The translations under genes were made by a program, and so were the position numbers. 44,990 nt of DNA from Chthonomonadaceae bacterium (GTDB lineage: Bacteria; Armatimonadota; Chthonomonadetes; Chthonomonadales; Chthonomonadaceae): positions 1 through 44,990 of the forward strand of contig DAIDKH010000035.1 in the NCBI GenBank assembly GCA_027450145.1, in the 5' to 3' direction. The notes under the pieces are model-generated. The model made no database searches and was not told where the DNA came from. It saw only the letters and a list, made by a program, of their open reading frames with translations. Of the stretch, positions 510 to 26,336 are shown one piece after another (position 1 is the stretch's first letter; each line of letters begins with the position of its first letter).

Positions 510-584
510 GTCTTTAGATTACCAGATTAGGCCGTGCGTGTCATGTCTATAAGTACCGTCTTTTTCGTCAACACTTTAAGAATA

Positions 585-1235: not shown

Positions 1236-1348
1236 AATGCAAGAACGCAGTTACCTCCGTGGGCAGTGCCTCCTGCTATTGATGGCTAACGTCATGGTTA
1301 AACCACACAAATACTTGCCTGCACTCTTTAATTTCTATAGACCTGGCA

Positions 1349-1376
1349 CTAATAATGGTCAAGATTTCGCCGATAA
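1349..1376 (+). promoter_or_regulatory. Candidate sigma-28 (FliA)-type promoter upstream of the MCP gene
   Basis: cTAATaatggtcaagatttcGCCGATAA resembles the TAAA-N15-GCCGATAA consensus. The GCCGATAA box is a perfect match at 1369..1376 and lies 50 nt upstream of the MCP start. Confidence 0.4.
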
Positions 1377-1426
1377 TACCGCTACTTTAGCAGGTAAATT
1401 GACTTTGCAGGCAGGTTAATTCGCTG

Positions 1427-6682: not shown

Positions 6683-7339
6683 ATGAACGACCACAATCAA
6701 ACACCAAAGAGACTAGCGGTACTTGCTTTGGCACAGCAGGCTGCCAACTGCATGAACTGTGGTTTGGCCAGCACGCGAACCCAGGTTGTTTTCGGCGACG
6801 GTAACCCAGATGGTCCCTTACTCATTGTGGGCGAAGGCCCCGGTATGAATGAGGATCTCGAGGGTAGACCTTTCGTGGGCAAGGCGGGACAACTTCTGGA
6901 TTCATGCCTGGCAGAGCAGACTATAGACCGACGACACATATACATAACGAACGTTGTGCGGTGCAGACCAACTATCCGCGAGGAGAAATCGGTGCGAAAT
7001 CGGCCACCTAGCTCGGAAGAGATGGCAGCGTGCCTGCCCTGGCTGCAGCAAACAATCGCGATTATTCAACCCGTCGTAATTCTCTGTCTAGGTGCGCCCT
7101 CTGCCAAGACGATCATCAAGCCGGATTTCAGGATCACGCAGGAGCGCGGCCAATGGTTTTCCAATTCTTACGCCCCTAACATCATTGCCAGCTGGCACCC
7201 TTCCTATGTCATGAGGATGCACGGCGACGCGTACGACAAGGCCCGCGCTCAATTGGTTGGTGACATCGCGGCCGCACGCAATCGTGTGCGTGAAGTGCGC
7301 CGTACGCTCGAGCAAAGCACGGCATTAGAAGAGACCTAG
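6683..7339 (+). CDS. Uracil-DNA glycosylase, family 4 (4Fe-4S type)
   Basis: Motif A GEGPGMNED and motif B SWHPSY are both present. Cys residues (CMNC..., VVRCRP, AACLPW) fit the Fe-S cluster pattern. The listed ORF begins at 6479 but the homologous region starts at the ATG at 6683, downstream of the rpsU terminator. Confidence 0.75.
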   Translation: MNDHNQTPKRLAVLALAQQAANCMNCGLASTRTQVVFGDGNPDGPLLIVGEGPGMNEDLEGRPFVGKAGQLLDSCLAEQTIDRRHIYITNVVRCRPTIREEKSVRNRPPSSEEMAACLPWLQQTIAIIQPVVILCLGAPSAKTIIKPDFRITQERGQWFSNSYAPNIIASWHPSYVMRMHGDAYDKARAQLVGDIAAARNRVREVRRTLEQSTALEET

Positions 7340-9529
7340 TTCGCCCTGTCCTGGCCTAAACTTCACCAATGGAAAAAGGCGCACGCACTCTGCCTCGCCC
7401 CCAAAAGCTGGTGAAAGCCTCATTGCAAATTTATGTAGCTTGGCCACATAGTAGGCAGTGTTTTCGTCGTCGTTGTAGTCCTCAATGCGTGCCAAATCAC
7501 CCAGGTCGCGCTCGTAAACGTCTACGAATTCTCCTACCACAACACCGGTCGCGACGGCGGCAGATCGCTTACGGTGCTCACTGCTAAACGTCTTGGTGGT
7601 TACCCGTTCCCGTCGCGCTAACAGTTCGATGTTAACATCTCGCTGAATCAGCCGATTGATCCACCGGTGGTACAGTCCCGGAACCGATGATGAGGCGTCG
7701 TTCAGGATAAGCGTAATAGCTTCTTCCAAAAACTGCCTACCAAACGGTTCGTCCGATCGAGAGCGTAGTGCTGCGCCTCTAAGGATCTGCTTGCCATCGT
7801 ACGTTTGAAGCACATAGTTCTTAGTCTTAAGCGAGATCATCTTTCTATAGCGGCCATCGAAGGCGAGCCGTATGCCTGGAGGCATCTCGTCATCGATGCT
7901 GGCGACAAAAGCTCGCTCCGCCTCTTCTGTGCTAGCCCCATCAGGCGGAACGAAATAGACGCCATCGGTATCGATTTCAATAACACGGCAGCCACGTTTG
8001 GTCATCTTATTCGCGATAGACTGAACCAGGCTGCGCCCTAGTTCAGTTACGCGGCCTGCAGCAGCAGGATCGTTGAAAGGAAATGGGCCGCCGAGGTAAC
8101 CGTAAAACGAGTTAATGAGCACTTTGAAACTTGCTTGCAAACCATCCCAGTATTCATAGTCGCTGCCACCATGCTCTTTAACCTTGGCGGCACGTTGCTT
8201 CGCCTCAATGCGCCGCTTGGTGAGCTCCTTCAGGCAGGGCAAAAATACGTTCTCTGTGTCGGATGCCGGTGCAATGTTTTCCGCAAGCATCAGGCTTGGG
8301 TAGAGGCTCTCTACATCAGCCTTTACCACATGGTTAATAACACCGGTTTCCACAAGCTGGGTGTAACCGCCTAAATTTGCTTCCTGGGTAGTGCCTATAG
8401 GTAGAGCCGTGCCCGTGCGTAAATAAGCACGTATGAGGAGAGAGTTTATCTTGTCACCAGCCCCACTAGCGGCAACTGCCTGGTAGTTGTCCGGTGTCAT
8501 TTGCGTTTGGTAAAATTCCACAGGCGTCACCAAATTGGCAAGCTTTTGTGTCTCCACTACATCCTGCCGGGCATACTTGAGGACTGTGTCATGTTGGTTC
8601 GTCAACAGTTCTTCCATCCGATCACGTGGTAGCTCTACACGATCCTCATCGGCAAACCCAAATACTCTTGCGCACTCCTTCAATCCGTAGCGGGACAAAG
8701 CTCCGCGGGCCCAGTCAAATCGTTGAACGATCAAATAGGTATCAAGTACATGGCGGCCATGAATAGTTACTGGAGTAAATGGGCGGGTAAACCCGCCAAT
8801 TGCATAGTTTCGCTGACGTTCTACACGGGGTTCGGTGGAGTTTCGGCCCAATGTCAGTGGTATACCCAACCGTTTAGCACGTCCAATGAGGTACGGTAGG
8901 TCAAAACCAAAAACGTTGTGCCCCTCCAACACATCAGGATTCCGCTCATTTACCATCTCAATGAAGCTAGAGATGACATGCTCCTCATCGCCCTCAATGA
9001 TCTCTAGCAGTCCCTTGGTGTCCGCAACGGCTATCAACAGAATGCGTGCGTCCGGCAATGATGCGTCTAACCCAGTGGACTCGAGATCAAACTGCATCCG
9101 TACGATCTCTGAAAACTGCATGCCCTTAAACAGGGTGTCTCCCGATCGCATCAGCGCCATTCGCACGGGGCTGTTGACCGATATGAACGGCGTGTTCTTG
9201 TTTCTTAGCACCGCCTTCGCATCTGACCACTGGGTAAGTGAGCTAAACTCCAGCAAGTTACGTGCGCCTGCACCCTTTAGTACCGTTACCTCGCTATTTT
9301 CAGGTAGTTTGCTATCAAAAGCTGCTGTCACTAGCCACGGCCGCCAGCGCTCTACGGTGCGGCTCACCTTGTCGCCGTCCCGTCGATAAACCTCCAACTC
9401 CCCTTGAGGGTCCGCCTCAACAGCCACTATCCGCTGCCTGTCGCCGGCCCCATAAAGGAGTGGGCTCTCGTTAGGTGCAAAACCTGTCATAAAGCGCTCC
9501 CAACCTGTAATGATATCAGTGTACTCCAC
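7325..9529 (-). CDS. polB: Family B DNA polymerase (DNA polymerase II-like) with 3'-5' exonuclease domain
   Basis: Exo I is FDLESTGL, Exo II is NVFGFDLPYL and Exo III is YARQD. Polymerase motif A is DVESLYPS, motif B is KVLINSFYGY and motif C is IDTDGV. Confidence 0.8.
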   Translation of the reverse strand: MEYTDIITGWERFMTGFAPNESPLLYGAGDRQRIVAVEADPQGELEVYRRDGDKVSRTVERWRPWLVTAAFDSKLPENSEVTVLKGAGARNLLEFSSLTQWSDAKAVLRNKNTPFISVNSPVRMALMRSGDTLFKGMQFSEIVRMQFDLESTGLDASLPDARILLIAVADTKGLLEIIEGDEEHVISSFIEMVNERNPDVLEGHNVFGFDLPYLIGRAKRLGIPLTLGRNSTEPRVERQRNYAIGGFTRPFTPVTIHGRHVLDTYLIVQRFDWARGALSRYGLKECARVFGFADEDRVELPRDRMEELLTNQHDTVLKYARQDVVETQKLANLVTPVEFYQTQMTPDNYQAVAASGAGDKINSLLIRAYLRTGTALPIGTTQEANLGGYTQLVETGVINHVVKADVESLYPSLMLAENIAPASDTENVFLPCLKELTKRRIEAKQRAAKVKEHGGSDYEYWDGLQASFKVLINSFYGYLGGPFPFNDPAAAGRVTELGRSLVQSIANKMTKRGCRVIEIDTDGVYFVPPDGASTEEAERAFVASIDDEMPPGIRLAFDGRYRKMISLKTKNYVLQTYDGKQILRGAALRSRSDEPFGRQFLEEAITLILNDASSSVPGLYHRWINRLIQRDVNIELLARRERVTTKTFSSEHRKRSAAVATGVVVGEFVDVYERDLGDLARIEDYNDDENTAYYVAKLHKFAMRLSPAFGGEAECVRLFPLVKFRPGQGELGLF

Positions 9530-9559
9530 CTCGTCTCAACGCGCCTTACACCCATTTAC

Positions 9560-9573
9560 CGGTAATGTTACCG
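9560..9573. promoter_or_regulatory. Perfect-arm palindrome CGGTAA-TG-TTACCG about 30 nt upstream of the polB start (candidate operator)
   Basis: Read directly from the sequence. The 6+2+6 inverted repeat lies in the polB 5' region. It does not match the E. coli LexA box. Confidence 0.25.
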
Positions 9574-9688
9574 TGAAGGAATATTGCCTGCTAGGCGCGA
9601 AACCATTGTGTGGTGAATGTAAGATTCTCGCACCGCCTGCATTTCTATATCTAACCGACACGCCAACATTTACAAAGGAGCCCCCCTT

Positions 9689-10033
9689 ATGTCGGGTATG
9701 AAGCACGCGCCAGAGGCAGATATCGAAGAACTTCGAAACCTGCTGAACGAGCAGTACGTTGCGTCCAGTGTCTTAAAGGAGCTAATTCAGAACGCTGATG
9801 ACTCTAAGGCGGTCGTATTGGCAGATTGGCAGCTATTAAAGCAACTAAATAATGCCACACTACCCCGCTACCCAACCGGTGTTGGTACCTCCGCGCCAGT
9901 TGAACCGCCAATTGCGCCAGGCATACTCGTGGCGCAGGCACAACGAGAACTCGAGGATTACCTGCGAAGTGTCGACCACCGGTTTTTCCATCCAGAAGTT
10001 GAGCCGTTGGCTCTGTTGTGGCCACCAGACTAA
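9689..10033 (+). CDS. Small hypothetical protein (114 aa) with a GHKL/sacsin-like 'ELIQNADD' N-box motif, possibly a remnant
   Basis: A good AAAGGAG Shine-Dalgarno sits 8 nt upstream of the ATG. The motif LKELIQNADDSKAVVL resembles GHKL ATPase motif I, but no ATP-lid glycines follow. Confidence 0.35.
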   Translation: MSGMKHAPEADIEELRNLLNEQYVASSVLKELIQNADDSKAVVLADWQLLKQLNNATLPRYPTGVGTSAPVEPPIAPGILVAQAQRELEDYLRSVDHRFFHPEVEPLALLWPPD

Positions 10034-10168
10034 CTGTGCCGGCTACCAAAGAGAGTGCCGCGCCTGCATCTTTTTCGTCTTAAAGTGGTGCAACCTGCGC
10101 TCCAGTACCTACGTCTACACACTAGACAGGGTATTAGTATGTGGTTATAAGCTTGTTAATGGGGCTCA

Positions 10169-13796: not shown

Positions 13797-14654
13797 CTAA
13801 TCACCAATTCGCTGTTCGCCAGAGGTGTTGCACGACCCGGCAACATCCCATGCCCAAGTGGGCCCGTCACAACCAGATAGATAGCCCTTTGGAGGGTTAG
13901 GTCCTAACCCTGGAATAAATTTCACGTGTCCATCCGCGTATTCGATTGTATCACCGCCAGGGTGGAATACATGGTCATCGTCGGAGTCATATGGCGCATT
14001 CCAACAGCGCATTACACGTGTCTCTGCTGGACGCGCGAAGAATGAGAGCGTCAACGCGGCAGGCGCCCGACCAGTACAGCTGTCACCAGGTGCAGGTGTA
14101 TAGTTGTAGCCGTTAATTACACCACCACCGCCGCACAGGTGCGTATCACTGTTATGCGGAAACCCAGTGAGCTTGTTGTAAGGAGCGTCGGGCATAGAGA
14201 AGTTCTCGTGCGTAAACTTATAACTGGTACCGTAGACATCTGAGAACGATTTGCCGCTAATCTGTGAAAGCTGTCCGGCTGTTAAGACCACTGGCGGTAC
14301 ATCGGGGTTTGCACCGGTAAGCTCAAATCCTGTATCATCTGGACAGTGAAACACCCCCTGGTTCTTTACATAGGGCATAATCTCCGCCGGCACACCTGCC
14401 ATCTGCTTCCCGCTAAGGTTAGATGTAAGGGGTCCTATCATGTACTGCGGTGCGTAGGCAATTGGCTGAGTTTCGTCATAATCCTCGTCGTACATCAGGA
14501 TACCGAGGCCGAACTGCTTTAGATTGGAAGTACAGGTGGCAACGCGCGCCTTCTCTCGGGCCTGCGCGAACACGGGAAACAGTATCGCCGCTAAAATTGC
14601 AATAATTGCAATAACTACCAACAGTTCAATAAGCGTGAATGCGTGCTTTTTCAA
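13797..14654 (-). CDS. DUF1559 family protein with prepilin-type N-terminal cleavage/methylation domain
   Basis: The N-terminus [25 protein letters not shown] is prepilin-like, followed by [18 protein letters not shown] and a C-terminal [11 protein letters not shown] (H-x-DG) motif. Confidence 0.8.
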
Positions 14655-14837: not shown

Positions 14838-15602
14838 CTATTCTCTCGGAGGGTCAGAAGGATGTTCGTTTGGCCTTCCGCCATTCCAGTTATAAATTGC
14901 CCCGCCAATTCGGCCATACATCTGGTCGTGCGGACCGTCGCTTTTACTGTAGTGCACAACTCGTACGGAAACCGCGTGCCCATCAGCTGCAACCAGTGCA
15001 AACCGATGATTGTGTGTAGAAGGGTACGGAACCAGACCACGAACCCGGGACTCGGTGTCTGTATATTCGAAGCTGCCCTGATTTCCTTTGAAAAGCGGAG
15101 GCTGTTTTCCACGTCCAGTGTTTGCTGCCATACAACCTGCCTCAACCAGCATCGCCGTTTGGGCAGGTAGTTCGAGGTTATAAAGGGGAAATGGACCTCG
15201 CGCAAACGTGTTTTGAAACCGCGAATTGAGTGCATAATCGGCGCGAACACGACATCCCGTCGAAGGATCCGTTAGTCGATCGCGGTGCACTGACGCTGGA
15301 TTGTGAAGGACCCACTCTTCCTGACAATACCCACGAATTCTTTGGGTCCAGTCTATGCACGAGGGAATTGAGACAGGTACCGGTAGATCTCCGTCGTAAT
15401 CCTGCGAATAGAGTTGCAGGCCATAAGCCAGCCGATGAAGATGTGAAATGCTGGCTATTCTGTCGTCATTGTCTCGGCGCCAGGCAAGAAGAGTAGGCGC
15501 AGCCAAAACAGCGACGGCAAGAGCAAATATCGCCGTACCTATCACAACGCGAACCGAATGGCCGGCCGGGGTGCCCACCGTAATTGCACCAGGCTCGCTC
15601 AT
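14838..15602 (-). CDS. DUF1559-like protein lacking the canonical prepilin motif (single TM anchor instead)
   Basis: ISHLHRLAYGLQLYSQDYDGDLP and VAADGHAVSV (H-x-DG) resemble the DUF1559 core. The N-terminus has a hydrophobic helix VVIGTAIFALAVAVLAAPTLL but no G-F-T-L-x-E prepilin cleavage motif. Confidence 0.55.
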   Translation of the reverse strand: MSEPGAITVGTPAGHSVRVVIGTAIFALAVAVLAAPTLLAWRRDNDDRIASISHLHRLAYGLQLYSQDYDGDLPVPVSIPSCIDWTQRIRGYCQEEWVLHNPASVHRDRLTDPSTGCRVRADYALNSRFQNTFARGPFPLYNLELPAQTAMLVEAGCMAANTGRGKQPPLFKGNQGSFEYTDTESRVRGLVPYPSTHNHRFALVAADGHAVSVRVVHYSKSDGPHDQMYGRIGGAIYNWNGGRPNEHPSDPPRE

Positions 15603-16828
15603 TGGGGCACGCCAAACTCCATCTGTCGGCGTTGATCAACCTGCACGATGGCTGCACCGATCTCGTTGGCAAGCCCTTTTATGGTTAGGTTAGCCGCATC
15701 GGCATCCGCTTTATCAGCCAGAGTGATACCACGTGCCAGTACTTTACCGGCCTCAGTATCCGCACGCACCTCGTATGGCGCAAGGTCGCGGTCTACCAGA
15801 TAGTCCAGGTTTTTGGCGGTAGTCTCTGCACGTTGAGCTGCAGTTTGACCACCTGCCGAAACCATGTCACAAATCACTATCTCTTTTATGGAAATCTGAG
15901 CGGCCGATTGTCCGTTCAACGTGATAGGCTTAACCTGAGCTTGCCAGGTGGGATCTACCTGGCTGATTCTAATGGGTAGATCTAACTGCTTTATCACAGC
16001 CAGCGCCGCCCGTATGCGTTGTGGAGTTGGCGGGTGGTCCCTGTAGATCCCAAGGTTCGTATCTCCATGATCCCTTTCATAGGCTGCCAGCCTAACCATA
16101 AAGGTGTACATAGCAACAGGATTGTACGGCGTGTGGGTCAACAGCATCATACCTGTGTGGTCAGCATCCTCTTCAGCCTTCACGCTATAGCCATTTATTC
16201 TGGCAATGTTGTACAGCTCAGAGCCCTGCAATACTTCAAATCCCGCGCTGGGCAGGTCATTGTTGCCTCGGCTTAAGATCATGGCGAGTGCTGCAATCTG
16301 GATTGGTGTAAGAATAGCCTGCGCCTTCTTCTGCTCGCGCATCAGGGTAATCACATGGTGATGGTCAGCATGGCCAATTTCGTGAGCGAGTACCGCAGCA
16401 AGCTCATCGTCGGAATGGACGAACTTTAGAAGGCCTGTGTTTACATAAATAAAACCGCCCGGCAGTGAAAATGCATTCACATCGGGGTTTTCAACCACAT
16501 GGAATGTGTAGTGAAAAGGTTTTAGAAGAGACGAACCAAACAGAGCAGGTATAGGGTATTTGTCAGCGGCAGCTGCAATTACCTGGCCAATTTTGTTTAC
16601 ACGCTCCCACAAGGGACCGCTCGTAATGACTTTCGCCTGCTTCGCTTCTTCCGCGGCCGCCTTTTCACCGATGATGACCTCAGGATCATTCTTCAGAGAG
16701 TAACCGGGTGCAACCTCTGTAGCGGCATTAGGAGCAGGTGGAGCTCCAGAAGCCGGAATTGAGCAAACACTCGTGCCCAACATCGCGCCGATGATAGTTA
16801 CTGCGTACCCAATATCCTTTAGGTTCAA
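15599..16828 (-). CDS. M48 family zinc metallopeptidase with a ~180-aa C-terminal extension of unknown function
   Basis: The HExxH motif is LAHEIGHADHHH, with NAFSLPGGFIYV upstream. A signal peptide is present. The probable TTG start at 16828 (MNLKDIGYAVTIIGAMLG) is preceded by AAGGAA. The longer ORF to 16924 would overlap the upstream gene. Confidence 0.65.
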   Translation of the reverse strand: MNLKDIGYAVTIIGAMLGTSVCSIPASGAPPAPNAATEVAPGYSLKNDPEVIIGEKAAAEEAKQAKVITSGPLWERVNKIGQVIAAAADKYPIPALFGSSLLKPFHYTFHVVENPDVNAFSLPGGFIYVNTGLLKFVHSDDELAAVLAHEIGHADHHHVITLMREQKKAQAILTPIQIAALAMILSRGNNDLPSAGFEVLQGSELYNIARINGYSVKAEEDADHTGMMLLTHTPYNPVAMYTFMVRLAAYERDHGDTNLGIYRDHPPTPQRIRAALAVIKQLDLPIRISQVDPTWQAQVKPITLNGQSAAQISIKEIVICDMVSAGGQTAAQRAETTAKNLDYLVDRDLAPYEVRADTEAGKVLARGITLADKADADAANLTIKGLANEIGAAIVQVDQRRQMEFGVPQ

Positions 16829-16884: not shown

Positions 16885-17376
16885 CTAAAGTGGCAAAAGC
16901 GACTCGTGTGTACCGTCCACCCATACGATTTCAGCATCCAGTAGAGTGCCCTCTAACAGGATGTTGATGCTCGTAAGGCCGGCTAACTCTGCCGATGAGC
17001 CATCGCCCTTGATGCCTAAAGACACCCACAAACCGTCTAGGGAGTCAACGCGCGAGCAGGTGACCACAATGCGACGCCCCATTGCAATCAACTCCACCGT
17101 GCAGGGAAACAACTCCTGCCGCTGCAATTGCCTCTCACCGGTAATCACTGTTACATAGCGGCTAAGTGTTGCCCGCACCATAGGACTCGACGGTGATGAC
17201 GCGTCAATGTTCAAGGAAAACCCGGCTAGATCCTCTGGCTGTACGGGTTGCTCATTTAGATAGACGCTGTAGGAGAGTGGATCCGTACTCTCGACGAATA
17301 GGTGTACGAGTCCACCGCCCATAATTCTTGCCACATCAGACGCAACATCCCGGGGAGCAGCACCATTGTTTTGCAT
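16885..17376 (-). CDS. Hypothetical protein (163 aa), no recognisable domain or signal peptide
   Basis: This is a clean ORF co-oriented with its neighbours, with no homology recognisable by eye. Confidence 0.4.
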   Translation of the reverse strand: MQNNGAAPRDVASDVARIMGGGLVHLFVESTDPLSYSVYLNEQPVQPEDLAGFSLNIDASSPSSPMVRATLSRYVTVITGERQLQRQELFPCTVELIAMGRRIVVTCSRVDSLDGLWVSLGIKGDGSSAELAGLTSINILLEGTLLDAEIVWVDGTHESLLPL

Positions 17377-17387
17377 ACTTTTCTGCC

Positions 17388-18068
17388 TCAGTAACGGGTG
17401 TATCTAATGCGCCTTCCGCCACCACCGCCACCAAACAGGCGGGCGAAAAACGCTAAAACGATAACAAACAGTATACCTGCCACAATTGTATGAAACCAGT
17501 TGAACCCGCCCGGCACGTAATAACCGTTCACATAAATTGGCGGGTTGTAATAGAACGCAGGATGGAATGGAGTGTAGTAATACCAGGAAGGCCGATTCCA
17601 GTAGTAGCTATAGTCGCTAAACCCACCGTAATATCGCGCCGGCGCCGATCTGCCGCCGTAAGTATAAGGAGCGTGTGAGTACGTATATGTCCGCCCGCTA
17701 CCAAATGAGCCAGAGCGACCGAAAGAACTCCCCGATCTGCCGCCAGACGACGAACTATATCCGCGATAACCGCCAAATGAGCCAGAGGAGCGAGGTGCCG
17801 AGCTTCCAAAACTCCTGTGTCCAAAGAAACTGCCGCCAGATGATCGGCTTCCACCGCCAAATGAACCGCCACGACCGAACGAACCTCCAGACCTGCTACC
17901 AAACGAACTACCAAAGCTGTGGCCGCCACCAAAGCTATGCCCACCGCCAAAGCTATGCCCGCCACCAAACGAACCGCGCGCGAATGCCGGAACTGACGCC
18001 AACGGTGCACTAAGGATCAAACAGGCCAGTGAAGTTACGAATAACAGTCGAACCCATATTGCTTTCAA
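17388..18068 (-). CDS. Secreted Gly/Ser/Phe/Tyr-rich low-complexity ('glycine-loop'-like) protein with Tyr-rich segment and C-terminal TM anchor
   Basis: A signal peptide MKAIWVRLLFVTSLACLILSAPLASVPAFA is followed by repeats GGGHSFGGGHSFGGGHSFGSSFGSRSGGSFGRGGSFGGG. A Tyr-rich block YYWNRPSWYYYTPFHPAFYYNPPIYVNGYY precedes a hydrophobic C-terminal helix and a basic tail. It uses a TTG start with a G-rich Shine-Dalgarno. Confidence 0.6.
   Translation of the reverse strand: MKAIWVRLLFVTSLACLILSAPLASVPAFARGSFGGGHSFGGGHSFGGGHSFGSSFGSRSGGSFGRGGSFGGGSRSSGGSFFGHRSFGSSAPRSSGSFGGYRGYSSSSGGRSGSSFGRSGSFGSGRTYTYSHAPYTYGGRSAPARYYGGFSDYSYYWNRPSWYYYTPFHPAFYYNPPIYVNGYYVPGGFNWFHTIVAGILFVIVLAFFARLFGGGGGGRRIRYTRY
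17926..17979. repeat. Three tandem copies of an 18-bp in-frame repeat encoding GGGHSF units
   Basis: The three copies are gccgccaccaaagctatg, cccaccgccaaagctatg and cccgccaccaaacgaacc. Confidence 0.6.
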
Positions 18069-18088
18069 TATGCTATCCCCCCTGCAAG

Positions 18089-18550
18089 CTATATAAACGA
18101 GATCGTTGCGACCTCATCTGCGCCCAGCCAATGAGGTCTGTAAATTGTGATGTATGCCTGTACCTGGTTTTGCTCTGCGTCGATGTCTACCACCGCCTCT
18201 ACAATACCATCGGTAACATCCCGACCATTGTAGAGCACAGTCGTCGCCTCAAACGCAAACCCCGGGTGTGTGTTCTCAATAATTAAATCATGGCCTGGGA
18301 AGATTATTTGCAGTCTCCCCGGAAAAATTCCTACCGGGCTGCCAGGATTATCCTGCGGATACACTTGGGCCGAGATGTCCCCACCCGCGCTGATACCACC
18401 CCGAACAGGCTCTCCATCCGCATCACGGCCTGCTTGTAATGAAACCTGAAGCTTTTCCGCAGGCCAATCCTGCCCGTTTAGGGTTAATGTCGTGGTGTCC
18501 CAATCACCACCTGTCTGAAAGGTCACGATATTCATCACGTGCAATCCCAC
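18089..18550 (-). CDS. Hypothetical protein (~150 aa)
   Basis: This ORF is co-oriented within the secreted-protein cluster. No domain was recognised, and the start is uncertain (an alternative Met lies 5 codons in). Confidence 0.4.
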   Translation of the reverse strand: MGLHVMNIVTFQTGGDWDTTTLTLNGQDWPAEKLQVSLQAGRDADGEPVRGGISAGGDISAQVYPQDNPGSPVGIFPGRLQIIFPGHDLIIENTHPGFAFEATTVLYNGRDVTDGIVEAVVDIDAEQNQVQAYITIYRPHWLGADEVATISFI

Positions 18551-18751
18551 CTCAATATCATAGGATTAGGGGTAACAAACCTATACGAACTTGAACAATC
18601 ATACCTGAAACCGTTGAGTGCACCATGACTATACTGAACTTTGAGGGCTTTGGTTTCATTGGCCCACACAGTGGTGGCACCGTTGCGCAGGTCTGGAATG
18701 CGCAACGGTGCCTTTCGCACTACTCGCTAAAACAACAACAAGCCATTTGCA

Positions 18752-20077
18752 CTAACGAATTTCATTTGCCGCAGTATCGGGCTGCGAAACGCCCACTTCA
18801 ATAATTGTATAGCTTCCGTTGATTAGCCGTAGCGCGTAGTCTACTCGCACTGTCTTTTCAACGTTGTGGCTATCAGCATACCGGTGTTCTCCGCTAAGCA
18901 CAATCACTCCCGGATCCGGCGTCGATATCATCCGCAGGTCAAAGGACAGCGTTGTCATATTGCGCTGAGCATCGTGCGTGATGTCAAGATAGTCGTTGGA
19001 TGTCATAGAGTACTTGTAAACACCTTGCAAATACACGCCGATTCGCACATTGGGCAGAGTATGTAGCGCCAGCGGCGAGATGTTGCTGTTTATCCAGCTA
19101 TCGCAGATGTCATCGATCGCTCGTTGTTGCAGAACACCCGTTGGCAATCCTACCGATCGTGTGAGGTAGTAGTCGTCAGTAGATGGGTAGAGGCTTGCAT
19201 AGGCCAAATATCCTCTTTGTGGCACTGACAACACTAGATCTGCGTTCGAGATATACGGGGGCAGTACACCATAGTAGTAATATGGTGACCAACTGGCATA
19301 GCCGATTGTGAACACATTGACATAGTATGGGTAGTACGCTAGTCCCGTTAAGAACCATGGATAGATCCACGTTGGATACGTCGTGTAAATCAACCTGCTG
19401 TAAACCCCACTGGGGAACCTGTACACATACGTATTATTAAATCTTGTGGGCTTACCGACAAAACGTGTCGGTACGGACTGCACTATGATTCGCCCGCCAT
19501 CCGATGCGCGCCCCACACCCGGTGCACTCCTTGGTGTGACGATGCCAGGAAGGCGAGGAAGAGTGCCACCAGGAATCCTGGGTGTACTTCCGCCAGACGG
19601 CCTGGTTGGGCTGCCACCTGGGCGTTTAGGATCCACTCTACCGGAACCTTGCTGCGCAGACGTTCCGGGGCGACGTGGAAGTGTGGCACCCGGGCGAGAG
19701 GGTGTACCGCCACGTGGTGTTCGCGGTACGTAACCTCCCCCAGGGCGCGATGGCGTACTACCGCCAGGGCGTGATGGCGTACTACCGCCAGGGCGTAATG
19801 GCGTACTACCGCCAGGGCGTGATGGTGTGCTGCCGCGGGGTGTGCGGGGCGTCGTACCGCCCTTCCCGCCGGCTGGCGCTCTTGGTGTAGACGGCCCACC
19901 GCCCTTGTTCGGCGCTCTACTCCCATCCCCTCGCTGTTGGCTCATTGTTCTTACGTTATTGTTATAGCCGCTACCATCCCGCAGTCCTTGCGCGTTCGCA
20001 GCAGCCGTTTCAACCAGCATTAATACAGACAATCCTAAAGCAAATGACTTTAAGCTTAATCGGCAATTTCTGTACAT
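18752..20077 (-). CDS. Secreted protein with cationic Pro/Arg/Gly/Thr-rich repeat linker, Tyr-rich segment and conserved C-terminal domain (paralog B)
   Basis: The ATG at 20077 has a GGGAGGT Shine-Dalgarno and is followed by the signal peptide MYRNCRLSLKSFALGLSVLMLVETAAANA. Repeats of the GSTPSRPGG type follow, then a Tyr-rich block YVYRFPSGVYSRLIYTTYPTWIYPWF...SWSPYYYYG. The C-terminal domain is homologous to the product of 20476..21501. Confidence 0.65.
   Translation of the reverse strand: MYRNCRLSLKSFALGLSVLMLVETAAANAQGLRDGSGYNNNVRTMSQQRGDGSRAPNKGGGPSTPRAPAGGKGGTTPRTPRGSTPSRPGGSTPLRPGGSTPSRPGGSTPSRPGGGYVPRTPRGGTPSRPGATLPRRPGTSAQQGSGRVDPKRPGGSPTRPSGGSTPRIPGGTLPRLPGIVTPRSAPGVGRASDGGRIIVQSVPTRFVGKPTRFNNTYVYRFPSGVYSRLIYTTYPTWIYPWFLTGLAYYPYYVNVFTIGYASWSPYYYYGVLPPYISNADLVLSVPQRGYLAYASLYPSTDDYYLTRSVGLPTGVLQQRAIDDICDSWINSNISPLALHTLPNVRIGVYLQGVYKYSMTSNDYLDITHDAQRNMTTLSFDLRMISTPDPGVIVLSGEHRYADSHNVEKTVRVDYALRLINGSYTIIEVGVSQPDTAANEIR
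19741..19836. repeat. Four tandem copies of a 24-bp in-frame repeat (cagggcgtgatggcgtactaccgc) encoding the Pro/Arg-rich units
   Basis: Near-identical 24-mers lie at 19741, 19765, 19789 and 19813. Confidence 0.7.
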
Positions 20078-20407
20078 GACTTTAACCTCCCACACAACGA
20101 ACGCGCTCAAAGTTGCGCTTGTGTTCGTTGCTCTGCAATTCCCATTCATTACCCTTCCTTACGAGATGCGAATTATGGTAATTCCACGTACGCATTAAGG
20201 CAAAATCATTGCATGTGATAGAAGAGTGGAGTTGAAAAAAGGCAGCATAATTCAACACTATATTTCATGTAGTCAACCGTCGTTCCAATTGTATGAATTA
20301 TTCCAGGCAACCATCCGGCTTGTTACTACGACTAACTGTTTAAGTGCTTTGTAGCTTGGATGCCGTGAGCCGCAACCGAAGACTAAATTGTTGGAGTGAG
20401 ATATGAA

Positions 20408-20452
20408 CACAAATGAAAATGCAATGCCACCACAACGACACGTGTGGCGGCA
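20408..20452 (-). terminator. Candidate rho-independent terminator after paralog A
   Basis: A hairpin TGCCACCAC/GTGTGGCGGCA (one mismatch) is followed on the minus strand by TTGCATTTTCATTTGTGTTC. Confidence 0.35.
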
Positions 20453-20475
20453 TTCCACCTGCAAAGGGGAGACAT

Positions 20476-21501
20476 TTAAGGTATGTTAGTGGAAGTACCG
20501 GGACCCTTTGAAGTGGATACACCTACCTCGGTGATCACATAATTTCGCCCCTGTTCGCGAAGGGCATAGCTCACGATGACCTGATGTTTCACGTTTTTAT
20601 GGTCGAGGTAAATATGCTCTCCTTGCAACACTATGACGCCGCGTGCAGGAGTCGCGACCATATTAAGGTGATAACTAAGGGTTTTTAAGGTTCTCTGTGC
20701 GTCGTGAGTTAAATCGAGGTAATCCCCCGGGGAGATCGAGTATCGGTACTTCCCATCAAGGTAGACCGCAATTCGATCATTACGATTGGTATGTGCAGCC
20801 AACGGCGCCAAATTGTCGGTAAGCCAACAGTCCTCAATATCTCGAACCACCTGTGCCTGAATGTCATTCATGGGCAGCGAGACAGATCGTACGAGGTAGT
20901 AATTGTTTGCCGCAGAATTGACCGATTTGAGCGCTAAAAAGCCGCTGGTAGGTTGGGCAACGTAAATCCCTGTGTTGCTTATGTATTTAGGTGCGCATCC
21001 ATAGTAATAGTATGGTGACCAACTGGTGTCGCCATAGGTATACACGTTGGAATAAAATGGGTAATAGCCCAATCCGTTGCTGTAATACGGATCGATCCAC
21101 CCAGGGTATTGCGTGTAGATGATACGTGAATAAACGCCGTTTGGGTATTTGTACGAGTAACTCTCCGCAGATCTATTAAACCTGTCGGCCGCAGTCATTG
21201 AACCAGGCGCAATCGTAATAGTTCCGCCTGTTGAAGCATCGCCAACCGAACGTCCGCCGCCACCCGATCCTCCCGATCCACCAGATGGAGGAGTGTAGTG
21301 TGGAACACCACGATTACGAGGAGGCGAGTAGGAGGGTTGCGGAGGCGGGTTGTACTGTGGAGGTGGGCTATTATGCGGCGCAGGAGGGTTGTTCCTCGGC
21401 GCTGGGCGTGACCTACTCTGGGCAGCCGAAATACCGGGCGATCCCGCAAGTGCAATGCCCACCATTACCAAAATACTGAGGTCTAACGTAACATTTCGCA
21501 T
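20476..21501 (-). CDS. Secreted Pro-rich / Tyr-rich protein with conserved C-terminal domain (paralog A)
   Basis: A GGAGGTG Shine-Dalgarno precedes the signal peptide MRNVTLDLSILVMVGIALAGSPGISAAQS. A Pro-rich region PAPRNNPPAPHNSPPPQYNPPPQPSYSPP is followed by YKYPNGVYSRIIYTQYPGWIDPYY...SWSPYYYYG. The C-terminal block DYLDLTHDAQRTLKTLSYHLNMVATPARGVIVLQGEH...YVITEVGVS is shared with paralog B. Confidence 0.65.
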   Translation of the reverse strand: MRNVTLDLSILVMVGIALAGSPGISAAQSRSRPAPRNNPPAPHNSPPPQYNPPPQPSYSPPRNRGVPHYTPPSGGSGGSGGGGRSVGDASTGGTITIAPGSMTAADRFNRSAESYSYKYPNGVYSRIIYTQYPGWIDPYYSNGLGYYPFYSNVYTYGDTSWSPYYYYGCAPKYISNTGIYVAQPTSGFLALKSVNSAANNYYLVRSVSLPMNDIQAQVVRDIEDCWLTDNLAPLAAHTNRNDRIAVYLDGKYRYSISPGDYLDLTHDAQRTLKTLSYHLNMVATPARGVIVLQGEHIYLDHKNVKHQVIVSYALREQGRNYVITEVGVSTSKGPGTSTNIP

Positions 21502-21698: not shown

Positions 21699-22067
<369 letters not shown>

Positions 22068-22279
22068 TCAACCACTCGCGAAAATGCCTCAGCACAATAG
22101 TATACCCAAGCCTATTTAGTGGGACGCACCGTATGTATTTCTGGAATGCGCATTAGTGCCTCGGTTTGCCATGCCGACAGGTTTCACGGAATACAATTGT
22201 TGCGCTGTGCGCAAAGAAATGACCCGCGCAGCCGTTACGGCGACGCGGGTCATTTCATCCATTTAGCAACTGTGACGAG

Positions 22280-22621
22280 TTACTCCAGGGCAGTATCGCC
22301 TGTCTCGCCGGTTCTAATCCTGATGACATCGGCTGTTGGTATCAGGAAGATCTTTCCATCACCAATTTCTCCGGTTTGGGCTGCTTTGGCTATCGTATCG
22401 GCGATTGCCCGCGCCTCCGTATCAGTCGCTACAATCTCAAGCTTGATCTTTTGCAAGAGGTTCACCGCGTATTCGGCGCCACGGTAGTGATGCGTTACTC
22501 CCTTCTGCTTGCCCGCACCTCGCACCTCGGAGACGGTCATCCCTTTCACCCCTATCTCCTCCAGTGCCTGCTTCACGTCATCCAGCTTCTGAGGCCGTAT
22601 GAGCGCCTCTACCTTTATCAT
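22280..22621 (-). CDS. glnK: Nitrogen regulatory protein P-II (first copy, immediately downstream of amt)
   Basis: [51 protein letters not shown] matches the P-II family. The ATG at 22621 has a GAGGAG Shine-Dalgarno. Confidence 0.85.
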   Translation of the reverse strand: MIKVEALIRPQKLDDVKQALEEIGVKGMTVSEVRGAGKQKGVTHHYRGAEYAVNLLQKIKLEIVATDTEARAIADTIAKAAQTGEIGDGKIFLIPTADVIRIRTGETGDTALE

Positions 22622-22697
22622 TGCCAACTCCTCTCATTTGGGCCACGGTGTATTTACGCGCGGCCCAATGTTATCAGCGTGTGATCGATCCTATCAA

Positions 22698-24332
22698 CTA
22701 ACCCTGGTGGGCTGGGTGAGCCTCTGAAGCGCCAGATTGAGAGAATGCACTTGGTGTCATTGCACCAGGCATAGCGCCGGGAACAAGTGCATACTCCGGA
22801 TACGCTGGAATACCGTGCTCATGGATATCGAGTCCCTCGATTTCTCCCGCTTTGGATACTCGAAGGAAGCCCATTTTGTGAACGGCGAACATCAGCACAT
22901 ACGCCGCAACAAAAGTTGACAGAGTGATTACAGCGCTACCTATGAACTGAGCCTCCAGAAGGGTCCAACCACCACCGTAGAACAGCCCCTTCAGCGCCGT
23001 ACCAGACATACCGTATGCACCGCTGCCGCTGAACTGGCCGCTAGCAAACAGTCCGAGAGAGAGCGTTCCCCAAATTCCTGCCAGGCAGTGCACTGGAACC
23101 GCGCCAATTGGATCATCAATTCGAAGATATTCAAGCAGGTTAACACCTGCCACGACCACCACACCCGCCACAGCGCCGAGGATGACTGCTCCCGTTGGCG
23201 TTACCCAATAACATGGGCAAGTGATGGCAACCAACCCTGCCAGAAACCCGTTAACCGTAAAGCCAAGGTCCCACTTCTTCGTCTGCGGAAAGGCGTAGAT
23301 CATTGCCATAAGCCCACCGGAGCACGCCGCAAGTGTTGTATTAGCGGATACACGACCGATACCAGCGAAGTCTAGAGCAGAAAGTGTACTCCCTGGGTTA
23401 AAGCCATACCAACCGAACCAAAGGATAAGACCACCCGAACATGCGATTACCAGGTCATGTGGCAGCATAGGTCCACCGCCATCTCGTTTAAACTTGCGGC
23501 CGATGCGCGGTCCTAGAACTAGTGACCCAGCAAGAGCGATGGTACCTCCAATGGTGTGCACAACTGTAGAACCTGCGAAATCATGGAAGCTCTGGCCCAA
23601 ACCTGGCAGGAAATTTCCGGGGCTGCCCATAAGAGCAAGGAACCCGTCCGGTCCCCACGCCCAGTGTCCAATGATGGGATAGATGAAGCCAGAAACACCA
23701 ACGCTGTAGATAAGGTCGCCCACAAACCCCGTGCGTCCTATCATGGCACCAGAGCAAACTGTAGAACAGGTATCTGCAAAGGCAAACTGGAAGATCCAGT
23801 GGGCCAGGAAAGCCACGGAGGTGTCTGTAGTAGATCCAGCAACAGTATAGGAATAGGTTGCAGGTGCATGGTCCAGGAAGAACCAGTGCATACCGATGAA
23901 CCCGTTACCGGTGCTGAACATGAAAGCGTATCCCCATGCCCAGAACAGCAGTCCGCACAGACACGTATCTACCACGCACTCCATAAGAACGTTTACGGTT
24001 TCACGAGATCTGCAAAAGCCAGCTTCCAGCATGGTAAACCCAACCTGCATTGCGAACACCAGGTAGGCTGCAACCAGTACCCAAGTGGTGTTAATTGCAC
24101 TCACAACCTGGGCATTTGACGCGTGTGGTGCTGGATCAGCACTCGCCGCACCACCGGTTAGAAACGAATAGATTGCAAAGATTGCAACCAGGATGGCAAG
24201 TGCCACCGTTTTGCCCAAGAGCAGTGTATAACCATACCGCCGCCATTGTGGATCGGCCAATCGCTGTTTAAGTCGCGCTACTTTTTCTGTTCGGGTAAGC
24301 CGATCGGCACATCTCTGCTTTCTTGAAAACAT
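22698..24332 (-). CDS. amtB: Ammonium transporter (Amt family) with ~60-aa N-terminal extension
   Basis: Eleven to twelve TM helices and Amt signature regions (DFAGSTVVHTIGG, FGWYGFNPGS) are present. Confidence 0.85.
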   Translation of the reverse strand: MFSRKQRCADRLTRTEKVARLKQRLADPQWRRYGYTLLLGKTVALAILVAIFAIYSFLTGGAASADPAPHASNAQVVSAINTTWVLVAAYLVFAMQVGFTMLEAGFCRSRETVNVLMECVVDTCLCGLLFWAWGYAFMFSTGNGFIGMHWFFLDHAPATYSYTVAGSTTDTSVAFLAHWIFQFAFADTCSTVCSGAMIGRTGFVGDLIYSVGVSGFIYPIIGHWAWGPDGFLALMGSPGNFLPGLGQSFHDFAGSTVVHTIGGTIALAGSLVLGPRIGRKFKRDGGGPMLPHDLVIACSGGLILWFGWYGFNPGSTLSALDFAGIGRVSANTTLAACSGGLMAMIYAFPQTKKWDLGFTVNGFLAGLVAITCPCYWVTPTGAVILGAVAGVVVVAGVNLLEYLRIDDPIGAVPVHCLAGIWGTLSLGLFASGQFSGSGAYGMSGTALKGLFYGGGWTLLEAQFIGSAVITLSTFVAAYVLMFAVHKMGFLRVSKAGEIEGLDIHEHGIPAYPEYALVPGAMPGAMTPSAFSQSGASEAHPAHQG

Positions 24333-24381
24333 ATAGGTGTGTCTCCTTCCAATTTTCCTTAATTGGAATAATTTGCGCAGG

Positions 24382-25551
24382 TTAGAATTTCACCACTGCA
24401 CTGGCATAAAAGGTGTCCTGATCTGGACTAGTACCGGAGCCTGCAAGGAAGAACGACTGGTTTGAATGGTCATGCCGGTATTCAAGGCGGGTAATCAAAT
24501 TGCCCTTGAAAAAGTCATATTCGTAATCCAGCGTAAACTCGTCCAGTTTGTTATAACCAGTGGCTCCGGTTCGAAGTCCCACCCCGCCGGCACCGGGTAT
24601 ATCCTCAAATTGCTCAATGCGCGCTGCAATGTCGGACTTAGGATTGAGCTGATATTTCACGTAGGCAGCCATATCCAGCCAGTTGCCGGAAACATGAGCG
24701 GTGCCATTTGTTCCGGCGCCCTGACCGTAGTCTAATTCACCCGCAATCTTGAGGGCAGAAGTAGCCTGGTACGTGGGCAAGAACTCAAACAGGTTGGTTT
24801 TTATGTAGCCTTTGTTAAACGGCACACCGTAAGCGCCCGTGCCTTCACTGCCACCCATATAGCCCAGCACACCGGTGAACTTACTGTTCGGTGTCCAGGT
24901 AAAGTTAACGATGCCACTCTTCGCGTTATTATCGTCCGCTACATCGTTCCAACCATTCACGATTGCACCATAAGCCGTAACTGTGGGTGACAGGGGTACG
25001 CTCCCACGTAGACCAAAGTGGTAGAACGGAATAGCGTACTGAAAGCCAAAACTCCTGGAGTACTCATCGTTGCTGCTGCTTTCAATGACCTCCTGCCCAA
25101 AGGGGGTCACCCATTTGCCGAAATCGAAAGTGACCGGGTATTTGTCGATGTTGACAGTCTTGGTAACGTACAGCTGCTGAAACGTTTGCCAAGAGGATGT
25201 ACCGCCAGGCTCATTTGCCTGCACAATTTTCGCAGTATCGCCAGCCGTCAATGTGGCTGTAATTCCAAACGGTATACCGGCTCCCTCATTTCGATGCAGA
25301 TTCACTTCAAAGAGACTGAGTGTCGGCATACGGTCGTTGATATCGAAGCTGCGTCCTACGTTATCTATTCCCACGGAACCGCCGCCCTGCAGCGCCAACG
25401 TGGATGCAGTGTGCGGAGCCCGGAAGTTGATACCAAAATAGAGATCTGCAAGACCAGAGACCGTAATTGCACCGGGTTTGGGCGCGCTATCTGCTCTGGC
25501 TAGCCCGCCACAGGCGGCGAGCATCAGCGCAGGAGCCAGCGATTTCTTAAG
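24382..25551 (-). CDS. Outer-membrane beta-barrel porin, first gene of the porin-amt-glnK operon
   Basis: A signal peptide KKSLAPALMLAACGGLARA is followed by alternating beta-strand patterns and a C-terminal aromatic residue (VVKF). The start is uncertain. The ORF extends to 25674, but the signal peptide suggests a start near 25551. Confidence 0.55.
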   Translation of the reverse strand, partial: LKKSLAPALMLAACGGLARADSAPKPGAITVSGLADLYFGINFRAPHTASTLALQGGGSVGIDNVGRSFDINDRMPTLSLFEVNLHRNEGAGIPFGITATLTAGDTAKIVQANEPGGTSSWQTFQQLYVTKTVNIDKYPVTFDFGKWVTPFGQEVIESSSNDEYSRSFGFQYAIPFYHFGLRGSVPLSPTVTAYGAIVNGWNDVADDNNAKSGIVNFTWTPNSKFTGVLGYMGGSEGTGAYGVPFNKGYIKTNLFEFLPTYQATSALKIAGELDYGQGAGTNGTAHVSGNWLDMAAYVKYQLNPKSDIAARIEQFEDIPGAGGVGLRTGATGYNKLDEFTLDYEYDFFKGNLITRLEYRHDHSNQSFFLAGSGTSPDQDTFYASAVVKF

Positions 25552-26336
25552 AGTGCGACAGTGACCGAATGTTCTTCGGTGCGACTTTTTCAGGCGGATC
25601 ACAGATAGTTGTCCTCCCTGCGATAGAATCAGGAATTGATGAAAATTTCCAGCGCTATAGCGATCATTAGCCAACGACTAATAGCCAGCATTGCCATACA
25701 ATGAGCATGTACTAATCTATGGACATGCTAAAATGGCAGCGCCAATCATTGGCAAAGATAGAAATAGGTAAAGAATCGGTGGCTCGACAATGTTAGCCGA
25801 ACGGTAACCGACGTGGAGAGCAACATCTGCGTTGCTGGTTTTGCCTTGAAGTAGTAAGGCTGTAGCCTGCGGCGTCAATGCCGCGAAGAAGAAATCACAT
25901 TTAAAGGACCGGTTAGGCTTCAAATCTGATTACAACGAGAGCGGTTCCCGAAGTAATCAATATTATAACAAACGTTTCATTCTATGTCAAGATGCCAGTG
26001 AATATTTGTCACAATCTACCCAATTTACTGCGGCTGTGCCGACTACGCCACCTGAGGCTTTAGATGCAATTTTGCGCATTGAACTATCCATTCCGCTTAA
26101 ATGCTTTGCCCGTCTCCAAACATCTTCGCAACGTGCACCAGACCAACCTACAACGGAGAGTTGACCTGGAAACAACAATGATAGTATGCTTGATCTGGTA
26201 ATGGGTAAATCTGCAGTCAGCTAAATCATGGCGTCTCAACCTCGGTTAGCTGGCCCATAAGCAGACCTATCCTCATCGTCATATTTGTAGTAAATTCGGA
26301 CAAACGGACCGAAGACGGAACGAGGGAGAAACCTTT

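Follow-up and report, generated by a model that had tools for sequence, protein, structure and literature searches.

A 44,990 nt stretch of DNA from a Chthonomonadaceae bacterium (contig DAIDKH010000035.1 of GenBank assembly GCA_027450145.1), here called the window, includes three minus-strand genes, A, B and C, for exported proteins rich in tyrosine (Tyr). Judged by alignment, B and C are duplicated members (paralogues) of one family, here named Y-NTF2. They share a module that combines a Tyr-rich segment, predicted to be folded, with a divergent domain of the nuclear transport factor 2 (NTF2)-like type, and this module follows a signal peptide and a disordered spacer. On balance, we favour the reading that B and C are exported, spacer-tethered binding modules of the cell envelope, which would act together with the products of an operon that Y-NTF2 genes head in related genomes.

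A first-pass annotation of the window had described A, B and C as consecutive genes for low-complexity secreted proteins with a shared Tyr-rich block. The three open reading frames (ORFs) are present (Table 1), and each includes a Tyr-rich block. Tyr makes up 30%, 27% and 28% of the richest 60 aa window in C, B and A, respectively, against a mean of 3.3% in the 26 other long ORFs of the window, where the richest 60 aa window reaches 15%. The genes are not consecutive, as a gene here named X1 lies between B and A; a second gene, X2, between A and a gene for an M48 family metallopeptidase, had also been overlooked.

One continuous module in B and C

Comparison of B and C using BLASTP (E = 1e-80) revealed 51% identity across 241 contiguous residues with no gaps. 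The alignment indicates a single continuous conserved module of ~240 aa, in place of the Tyr-rich block and separate C-terminal domain described previously. Identity is 57% in the Tyr-rich segment and 53% in the NTF2-like domain, both with no gaps, and 17% with 94 gap positions in the linker. The Tyr-rich block that had been described as common to all three proteins is homologous between B and C only. When the six-frame translation of the window was searched with a hidden Markov model (HMM) of the family with all filters off, only B and C were recovered (E = 1e-72 and 1e-66). A is absent from the matches even at E ≤ 10, and A orthologues also fail (E ~0.7–1.1). From these searches we conclude that A belongs to a different family, and that its Tyr-rich stretch resembles that of B and C in composition only.

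Signal peptides were judged by a heuristic that combines hydropathy (Kyte-Doolittle 12-mer) with AxA-type sites read from the sequence. As had been claimed, all three proteins have one, in which a basic n-region precedes a hydrophobic h-region and then an AxA-type site (ISAA/Q in C, ANA/Q in B and AFA/R in A, the slash marking the site). By this measure, B and C are exported via Sec-type signal peptides. No S-layer homology (SLH) or other recognised anchoring or S-layer domain was found in A, B or C using Pfam and NCBIfam.

The Pro-rich linkers reported earlier are also present, and that of B is cationic and contains an octapeptide repeat (Table 1). Orthologous alleles of B carry 3, 4, 8 or 11 copies of the octapeptide, and near-identical B orthologues of a sister population (P0004 and P0156–P0159; 385–449 aa) differ in copies of the octapeptide G(V/G)GTPSRPG. 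As these sequences come from short-read metagenome assemblies, the differences in repeat number may be assembly collapse rather than real. The start of B at MYRN is backed by the orthologue P0156 and by a GGGAGG sequence. C is identical to an unnamed public protein (P0152) on contig DAHYRY010000033.1 of GCA_027392195.1. A frameshift in the C orthologue of the sister species, called there as proteins of 106 and 245 aa, was considered and rejected; an intact 364-codon ORF is present, and the 106 aa protein is an artefact of calling the Pro-rich region in an alternate frame.

Predicted structure of the module

With an alignment of 120 sequences, AlphaFold2 returned a model of a C fragment with a mean predicted local distance difference test (pLDDT) of 85.9 and a predicted template modelling score (pTM) of 0.82. 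The pLDDT was 95–98 (means of 10-residue blocks) in the globular domain (fragment 121–242, C 209–330), 76 in the first block and 93–97 thereafter in the Tyr-rich segment (fragment 31–100, C 119–188), and 61–64 in the connecting loop (fragment 101–120, C 189–208). Modelling of the shared region had been put forward in the first-pass annotation, and at this depth of alignment it gave an NTF2-like cone with a confidently folded Tyr-rich segment. As the pTM is 0.82 despite ~50 disordered residues in the 253-residue chain, we infer that in the model the segment and the cone are packed as one rigid body; such a score would be out of reach if 60 residues moved freely next to a domain of 120. The predicted C-terminal domain of C is a divergent NTF2-like domain, an alpha+beta cone related to SnoaL_3/DUF4440 and of the kind that defines the NTF2-like superfamily (Pfam clan CL0051), in which helices at the N-terminus pack into an antiparallel sheet of strong curvature. 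The Tyr-rich segment, unlike this domain, has no structural match.

The aromatic, Pro, Ser and Gly positions of the Tyr-rich segment are individually conserved in relatives that are only 25–35% identical. These include, in fragment numbering, S74 (91%), Y76 (97% aromatic), P83 and Y85, and the family pattern reads YxP..YPYY..SPYxYYG..PxYI. On a charge-hydropathy plot, the segment of B and C (entropy 3.58 bits) falls on the ordered side and the linkers on the disordered side. Because of the high pLDDT in a high-pTM model, the conservation at fixed positions and at the level of a domain, and the ordered-side composition, we judge the Tyr-rich stretch of B and C to be a predicted folded part of the module and not low-complexity sequence. 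Its Tyr residues would then serve mainly in the structural core or at interfaces, and would not be freely available for cross-linking. In practical terms, a stretch with 27–30% Tyr had been read as low-complexity, and a deep alignment shows it to behave as a structured element.

These predictions bear on the earlier proposal that A, B and C make up a matrix, sheath or adhesive outside the cell that is hardened by dityrosine or phase-separates. The proteins are indeed exported and very Tyr-rich, the B linker has a net charge of +23 and Arg/Pro/Gly repeats that vary in number between alleles, and the 12 phenylalanine-glycine (FG) motifs in a region of ~95 aa in A resemble cohesive disordered proteins in composition. 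Against this, the Tyr-rich block of B and C is predicted to be folded (pLDDT 94–97), has an ordered-side composition and is conserved position by position, without gaps between the paralogues. Furthermore, A is unrelated to B and C, the repeat-number differences could be assembly collapse, and neither the window neighbourhood nor the conserved cassette described below includes a peroxidase, laccase or superoxide dismutase (SOD)-type oxidase. We therefore regard a matrix built from all three proteins as quite unlikely, though the material idea, by cross-linking or by phase separation, may hold for A.

Tyr-rich cross-linked structural proteins include CotC, CotU and CotG of the Bacillus spore coat, apicomplexan oocyst-wall proteins and resilin. 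Like B and C, they are exported and very rich in Tyr. In contrast to them, B and C have Tyr at fixed, conserved positions in a segment predicted to be folded, no partner oxidase gene was found at the loci, and no similarity to spore-coat, oocyst-wall or resilin proteins was detected in Pfam or NCBIfam. The search for an oxidase (peroxidase, laccase/CotA or SOD) covered Pfam domains in the scanned genes of the window and of seven loci in related genomes (L001, L008, L012 and L016–L019) and returned none, and such a gene may lie elsewhere in the genome.

Relationship to known NTF2-like proteins

The closest structures include the NTF2-like enzymes KstA15, ketosteroid isomerase, LinA, limonene epoxide hydrolase and scytalone dehydratase, with 3–16% sequence identity. 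A search of PDB sequences with the family profile returned only matches at E ~0.3, to de novo NTF2 designs. Seven polar residues of the domain, Y252, Y254, S255, D260, T265, D267 and H296 in C (Y164, Y166, S167, D172, T177, D179 and H208 of the fragment), are nearly invariant, each being conserved in 92–99% of members. An alternative is that the cone is catalytic, working as a dehydratase, isomerase, epoxide hydrolase or cyclase in the manner of SnoaL, ketosteroid isomerase, limonene epoxide hydrolase and scytalone dehydratase. It would act on a small molecule of the envelope (a lipid, a pigment or a glycan-derived compound), with the Tyr-rich segment as a lid or substrate channel. Both the near-invariant Asp, His, Tyr, Ser and Thr residues and the kinds of structure found would fit this. 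However, identity to every one of the enzyme structures is very low, and a placing of the conserved residues around a pocket is presumed. The Tyr-rich segment may instead be what the conserved Tyr and Asp touch, and small-molecule enzymes seldom carry long disordered tethers. An enzymatic role is unlikely in our view.

By sequence, the nearest described families are DUF4440 (PF14534) and SnoaL_3 (PF13474), which have the alpha+beta cone in common with Y-NTF2. B and C have no match in Pfam even at E ≤ 1, and 16 of the 120 relatives match SnoaL_3/DUF4440 at E ≤ 0.01, with best E values of 4e-7 and 7e-6. The models of these two families lack the obligatory Tyr/Pro segment of ~70 aa, the signal peptide and the long disordered spacer of Y-NTF2.

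DUF3828, DUF3887, DUF4878 and DUF4783 (structures 4q53 and 4orl) are, like Y-NTF2, exported NTF2-like domains of unknown ligand, and secreted NTF2-like DUFs that are operon-linked to peptidases have been proposed to be non-catalytic ligand binders (PMC3924330). They have no sequence relationship to Y-NTF2 (1 of the 120 members matches DUF4783, at E = 1e-3) and no Tyr-rich extension, their partner is NlpC/P60 whereas here it is M48, and the taxa differ. The NTF2-like protein in PDB 3rob_A, from Planctomyces limnophilus and itself uncharacterised, is 4% identical, with the match limited to the C-terminal domain.

The domain is thus known at the level of fold and weakly at the level of sequence, and some relatives are already labelled DUF4440 or NTF2 family. 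In the literature found, the obligatory folded extension rich in Tyr and Pro, the arrangement of signal peptide, spacer and module, and the cassette of orphan families appear to be undescribed.

The Y-NTF2 family

Using C as query, a word-indexed homology search returned only three matches. The family became visible only when 1.84 billion representative proteins were searched exhaustively with a profile, which gave 687, 348 and 36 clusters (at 50% identity) at E ≤ 1e-3, 1e-10 and 1e-30, respectively. In the 151 matches listed, the conserved module is C-terminal, and both of its halves, the Tyr-rich segment and a domain of ~115 aa, were recovered in 133. The signal peptide pattern, using the h-region heuristic, was seen in 108 of 134 members that start with Met, often ending A-Q. 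The linker that follows it varies widely in length and composition. The architecture of the family is a cleavable Sec signal peptide, a fast-evolving and repeat-prone disordered spacer (~60–300 aa) and a compact C-terminal module of ~215 aa.

The loop between the halves is ~20 aa in C and has up to ~45 extra residues in some relatives (e.g. P0039), and 27 of the 151 matches listed align in two or more stretches. In P0006–P0009 (542–601 aa), a single polypeptide carries two complete tandem modules of Tyr-rich segment and NTF2-like domain. NTF2-like domains commonly oligomerise, as in the CaMKII hub. A variable loop, tandem modules and a fold prone to oligomerisation would fit a picture in which the Tyr-rich segment binds the cone of a neighbouring molecule in trans, with B and C polymerising head-to-tail into an envelope lattice whose mesh size is set by the spacers. 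However, AlphaFold2 confidently places the segment within a single chain, and nothing found requires polymerisation; we give this arrangement only a slim chance.

Taxonomy, for this family and for those of X1 and A, was taken from the names of clusters; a scan of genome contigs with a narrow family alignment returned a single metagenome-assembled genome. Every named Y-NTF2 member is from Armatimonadota; the named members include a protein of Chthonomonas calidirosea (S0ES38/WP_016481410, labelled 'DUF4440') and one of Armatimonas sp. ('nuclear transport factor 2 family protein'). The first-pass annotation had not recognised a described family. This stands insofar as scans of A, B, C, X1, X2 and P254 (the product of the gene that overlaps the M48 gene) against Pfam, NCBIfam, PHROGs and PADLOC returned nothing significant, and it must be qualified for the relatives that already carry a DUF4440 or NTF2 family label. 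No paper on the Y-NTF2 family was found in the literature.

Armatimonadota are among the least characterised bacterial phyla, with almost nothing known of their cell envelope; only three formally described species have been counted (PMC12731048). Our analysis delimits a family of exported proteins that is large (at least 348 clusters at E ≤ 1e-10) and has a distinctive composite module of Tyr/Pro segment and NTF2-like cone. As the family has a cultured representative, in C. calidirosea (WP_016481410/S0ES38), the hypotheses made here are testable.

A conserved cassette in Chthonomonadales

In Chthonomonadales, Y-NTF2 heads an operon with the order Y-NTF2, X1, A, X2, M48, in some genomes ABC_tran_2, and a gene for a DUF1559-like protein; five of the seven genes are from families without any annotation. 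The full seven-gene operon, in its most compact version, was found in locus L019, where the last gene encodes P250 (P254-like) and the gaps are 28, 22, 12, 38, -4 and -4 nt. The Y-NTF2 product of L019 is 39% identical to C. L008 has the same order, with Y-NTF2 overlapping X1 by 4 nt, and L001, from the sister species, has the layout of the window. Relative to L019, the window has Y-NTF2 duplicated into C and B and lacks ABC_tran_2. The ABC_tran_2 gene (PF16949; 11951..13549 in L008 and 10909..12540 in L019) encodes a polytopic membrane protein and lies between M48 and the P254-like gene.

Co-occurrence of the Tyr-rich block with M48 and DUF1559 neighbours, suggested earlier as a question for related genomes, is seen in L019, L008 and L001. 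In L012 (C. calidirosea) Y-NTF2 is followed by X1 only, and the Y-NTF2 genes of L011, L014 and L020 are without the cassette. In L016–L018, from three other Chthonomonadales-like genomes, X1, A and X2 are retained and the upstream gene encodes a lipoprotein whose globular domain is unrelated and whose tail is SFG-rich. The genome of C. calidirosea is described in one account as seemingly disorganised (PMC4959169), and conserved gene order is therefore a meaningful functional clue.

The lipoprotein genes (6817..7968 in L016, 6907..7950 in L017 and 5093..6385 in L018) directly precede X1 in L016 and L017 and lie ~1.6 kb before it in L018. Each product has a lipobox (LTGCG or LSGCA); its globular domain is conserved, and its long SFG/Gly/Ser/Arg tail ends GGRRR. 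No homologue of them was found in the window. In L012, a CBASS-like pair (1..1746), made up of a SMODS/CD-NTase gene and then a gene for a Cap15-type effector, lies ~9 kb upstream of Y-NTF2 and X1 and is probably unrelated.

Proteins encoded by the cassette

Protein A has the N-terminus RLLFVTSLACLILSA and the AxA-type site AFA/R. Its signal peptide precedes an SFG-repeat region (residues 31–125), a Tyr/Pro-rich juxtamembrane segment (126–191), a transmembrane (TM) segment (192–212) and a C-terminal tail. The SFG-repeat region (~95 aa) is 37% Gly, 32% Ser, 14% Phe and 9% Arg, has a net charge of +9 and is also His-rich. It holds 12 of the 13 FG motifs of the protein, mostly SFG, and is thus a dense FG array in a Gly/Ser-rich disordered region; the L019 orthologue has 15 FG motifs. 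Both the juxtamembrane stretch (W.Y.TPFHPAFYY.PP...PGGF) and the extreme C-terminal tail (RxRYTxY) are conserved. At the DNA level, the repeat region (17694..17978, minus strand) includes 3.3 copies of an 18 nt repeat encoding GGHSFG. The A family consists of 43 clusters, and the sole taxon-labelled one is from an Armatimonadetes bacterium. Public annotation has shortened most A homologues or called them in the wrong frame, an effect of the Gly/Ser-rich 5' part of the gene, and most are only 80–130 aa. In L008, an annotated 154 aa gene is an alternate-frame artefact over the true 225 aa A gene (9472..10149).

X1 and X2 have neither a signal peptide nor a TM segment, and for neither was a relative found in Pfam, PHROGs or PADLOC or a meaningful match in the PDB. 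The X1 family comprises 61 clusters, with full-length relatives (145–150 aa) mostly 53–65% identical and a mean column identity of 72%. Its invariant motifs are GDWD, FPGR, EN.HP.F.F and DEVAT, and its named relatives are all from Chthonomonadaceae/Armatimonadetes, with the closest in Chthonomonadaceae. X2, which always follows A, has the invariant motifs GGGL, ELFP and GRR. Kinship between X1 and X2 was considered and rejected (hhalign probability 3%).

As the first-pass annotation had stated, an M48 protease and a DUF1559-like protein are encoded on the same strand. The former matches PF01435 (96 bits against a cut-off of 20.3 bits) and has the HExxH motif in AHEIGHADHHH. Its ORF reaches 16924, and a 409 aa start was chosen; orthologues are 409–411 aa. 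NCBIfam models of the periplasmic M48 proteins BepA and LoiP align to it at E = 5e-28 and 1e-11, respectively. However, the protein scores far below the equivalog cut-offs (98 bits against 570), has no detectable tetratricopeptide repeat (TPR) domain and carries an uncharacterised C-terminal extension of ~100 aa. P254 has no significant Pfam match, and to the eye its sequence resembles a DUF1559 protein without the N-methyl motif.

A possible role in the envelope

The reading we favour takes the module of B and C as an envelope or periplasmic binding unit on a flexible spacer, by analogy with other secreted, non-catalytic NTF2-like proteins. It would act together with the products of the operon that it heads in Chthonomonadales. 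The partners would be X1 and X2, soluble and without an export signal; A, anchored in the inner membrane with its SFG-repeat region exported; the M48 metalloprotease, likewise exported; the ABC_tran_2 membrane protein in some genomes; and the DUF1559-like membrane protein. Most speculatively, an envelope layer rich in aromatic residues and Gly may be built or maintained by the cassette, with M48 perhaps as a periplasmic processing or quality-control protease.

Several observations weigh against this reading. Three X1 loci (L016–L018) carry an SFG-tail lipoprotein in place of Y-NTF2, three Y-NTF2 loci (L011, L014 and L020) are without the cassette, and M48 is absent from three of the eight X1 loci. 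With an alignment of five sequences AlphaFold2 gave no confident model (pLDDT 33), so that the structure depends entirely on the deep-alignment run, and contact between the Tyr-rich segment and the cone is deduced from pLDDT and pTM only. The near-invariant polar residues could mean catalysis instead of binding. The binding role and the envelope location of the module are predictions from sequence and context, and in the envelope-layer picture the casting of X1 and X2 as cytoplasmic handling factors for aggregation-prone exported partners is pure conjecture.

Going further, the Chthonomonadales cassette could be an envelope system that has so far escaped recognition and consists almost wholly of orphan families, in which A and, in other genomes, the SFG-tail lipoproteins form a cohesive disordered layer, periplasmic or on the cell surface, and the B and C modules bind this layer, or polymerise through trans-binding of the Tyr-rich segment, to give a tunable proteinaceous matrix. 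We consider this whole scheme very unlikely. If true, binding of the SFG layer by the module would be a bacterial counterpart of the interaction between NTF2 and FG repeats. Eukaryotic NTF2 and TAP-p15, which bind FG-repeat nucleoporins, provide an analogy only; there is no sequence relationship, the bacterial envelope is a different compartment, and three genomes have the A cassette with no Y-NTF2 gene.

Layout of the locus

The genes and their parts are listed in Table 1. The spacings in the run X1-A-X2-M48-P254 are 20, 11, 56 and -4 nt, and for this reason these genes look like one operon. C is followed by a gap of 398 nt with a terminator-like hairpin, and B by a gap of 216 nt. Among the genes of the locus, only C and B stand apart from the tightly spaced run; the earlier view that the genes are individually expressed may hold for these two and does not fit the remainder. 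Strong ribosome-binding sites had been noted, and Shine-Dalgarno-like GGAGG sequences lie 5' of C and of B. The internal terminator that had been proposed corresponds to the hairpin after C, which is supported by its position only, as terminator-like sites are, in total, no more numerous across the region than in shuffled sequence.

Table 1. Features of the Y-NTF2 locus in the window
Feature	Position	Strand	Evidence or remarks
Gene C, Y-NTF2 paralogue, 341 aa	20476..21501	-	ORF; family HMM E = 8e-72; GGAGGTG 5' of ATG
C signal peptide (putative), residues 1–27 (h-region LSILVMVGIALA, then ISAA/Q)	21421..21501	-	Kyte-Doolittle 12-mer 2.76; heuristic
C disordered linker, residues 28–118, Pro/Gly/Ser-rich	21148..21420	-	composition, charge-hydropathy; pLDDT 51–62 (modelled part)
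C Tyr-rich segment, predicted folded, residues 119–188 (YYPFY...SWSPYYYYG..P.YI)	20938..21147	-	pLDDT 76–97; aromatic conservation; 57% identity to B, 0 gaps
C NTF2-like domain (predicted), residues 209–330	20512..20877	-	predicted structure
Terminator-like hairpin just after C stop, 12 bp stem, 6 G-C pairs, T-rich tail	20423..20454	-	
Gene B, Y-NTF2 paralogue, 441 aa, cationic repeat linker	18752..20077	-	ORF; family HMM E = 1e-65
B signal peptide (putative), residues 1–29 (SFALGLSVLMLV, then ANA/Q)	19991..20077	-	Kyte-Doolittle 12-mer 2.34
B disordered cationic linker, residues 30–220, with GSTPSRPG repeats	19418..19990	-	TRF; net charge +23
B octapeptide repeat, 24 nt x4 encoding GSTPSRPG	19740..19836	-	TRF
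B Tyr-rich segment, predicted folded, residues 221–290	19208..19417	-	gap-free alignment to C segment
B NTF2-like domain (predicted), residues 311–432	18782..19147	-	53% identity to C domain, no gaps; fold inferred from C model
X1, 148 aa, no signal peptide or TM segment, orphan family	18089..18535	-	conserved relatives
Gene A, 226 aa, SFG-repeat C-terminally membrane-anchored protein	17388..18068	-	ORF; not homologous to B/C
X2, 163 aa, no signal peptide, orphan family	16885..17376	-	orthologues in L001, L008, L016, L017, L018, L019
M48 family metallopeptidase, HEIGH motif	15599..16828	-	PF01435 E = 2.6e-27; 409 aa start as in orthologues
P254, one N-terminal TM segment, overlaps M48 by 4 nt	14838..15602	-	kept after M48 or ABC_tran_2 in L001, L008, L019
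DUF1559/prepilin-type N-methyl protein	13797..14654	-	PF07963 E = 2.9e-8 and PF07596 (SBP_bac_10/DUF1559) E = 1.4e-9

Scans of the window against Rfam and for tRNA found no RNA gene. Three alternate-frame or antisense ORFs of 95–160 aa (17528..18010 and 19483..19926 on the minus strand and 19446..19733 on the plus strand) lie across Gly/Ser- and Pro/Arg-rich coding regions and are by-products of biased composition, not genes. Directly upstream of the locus is a nitrogen-uptake block (21699..25674, minus strand) that encodes a BBP2/OmpL-like porin, an Amt ammonium transporter and two tandem P-II proteins; it is syntenic in L001 and L019, with a single P-II gene in L019. The window also encodes a family-B DNA polymerase (PolB) with an exonuclease domain at 7325..9529 on the minus strand.

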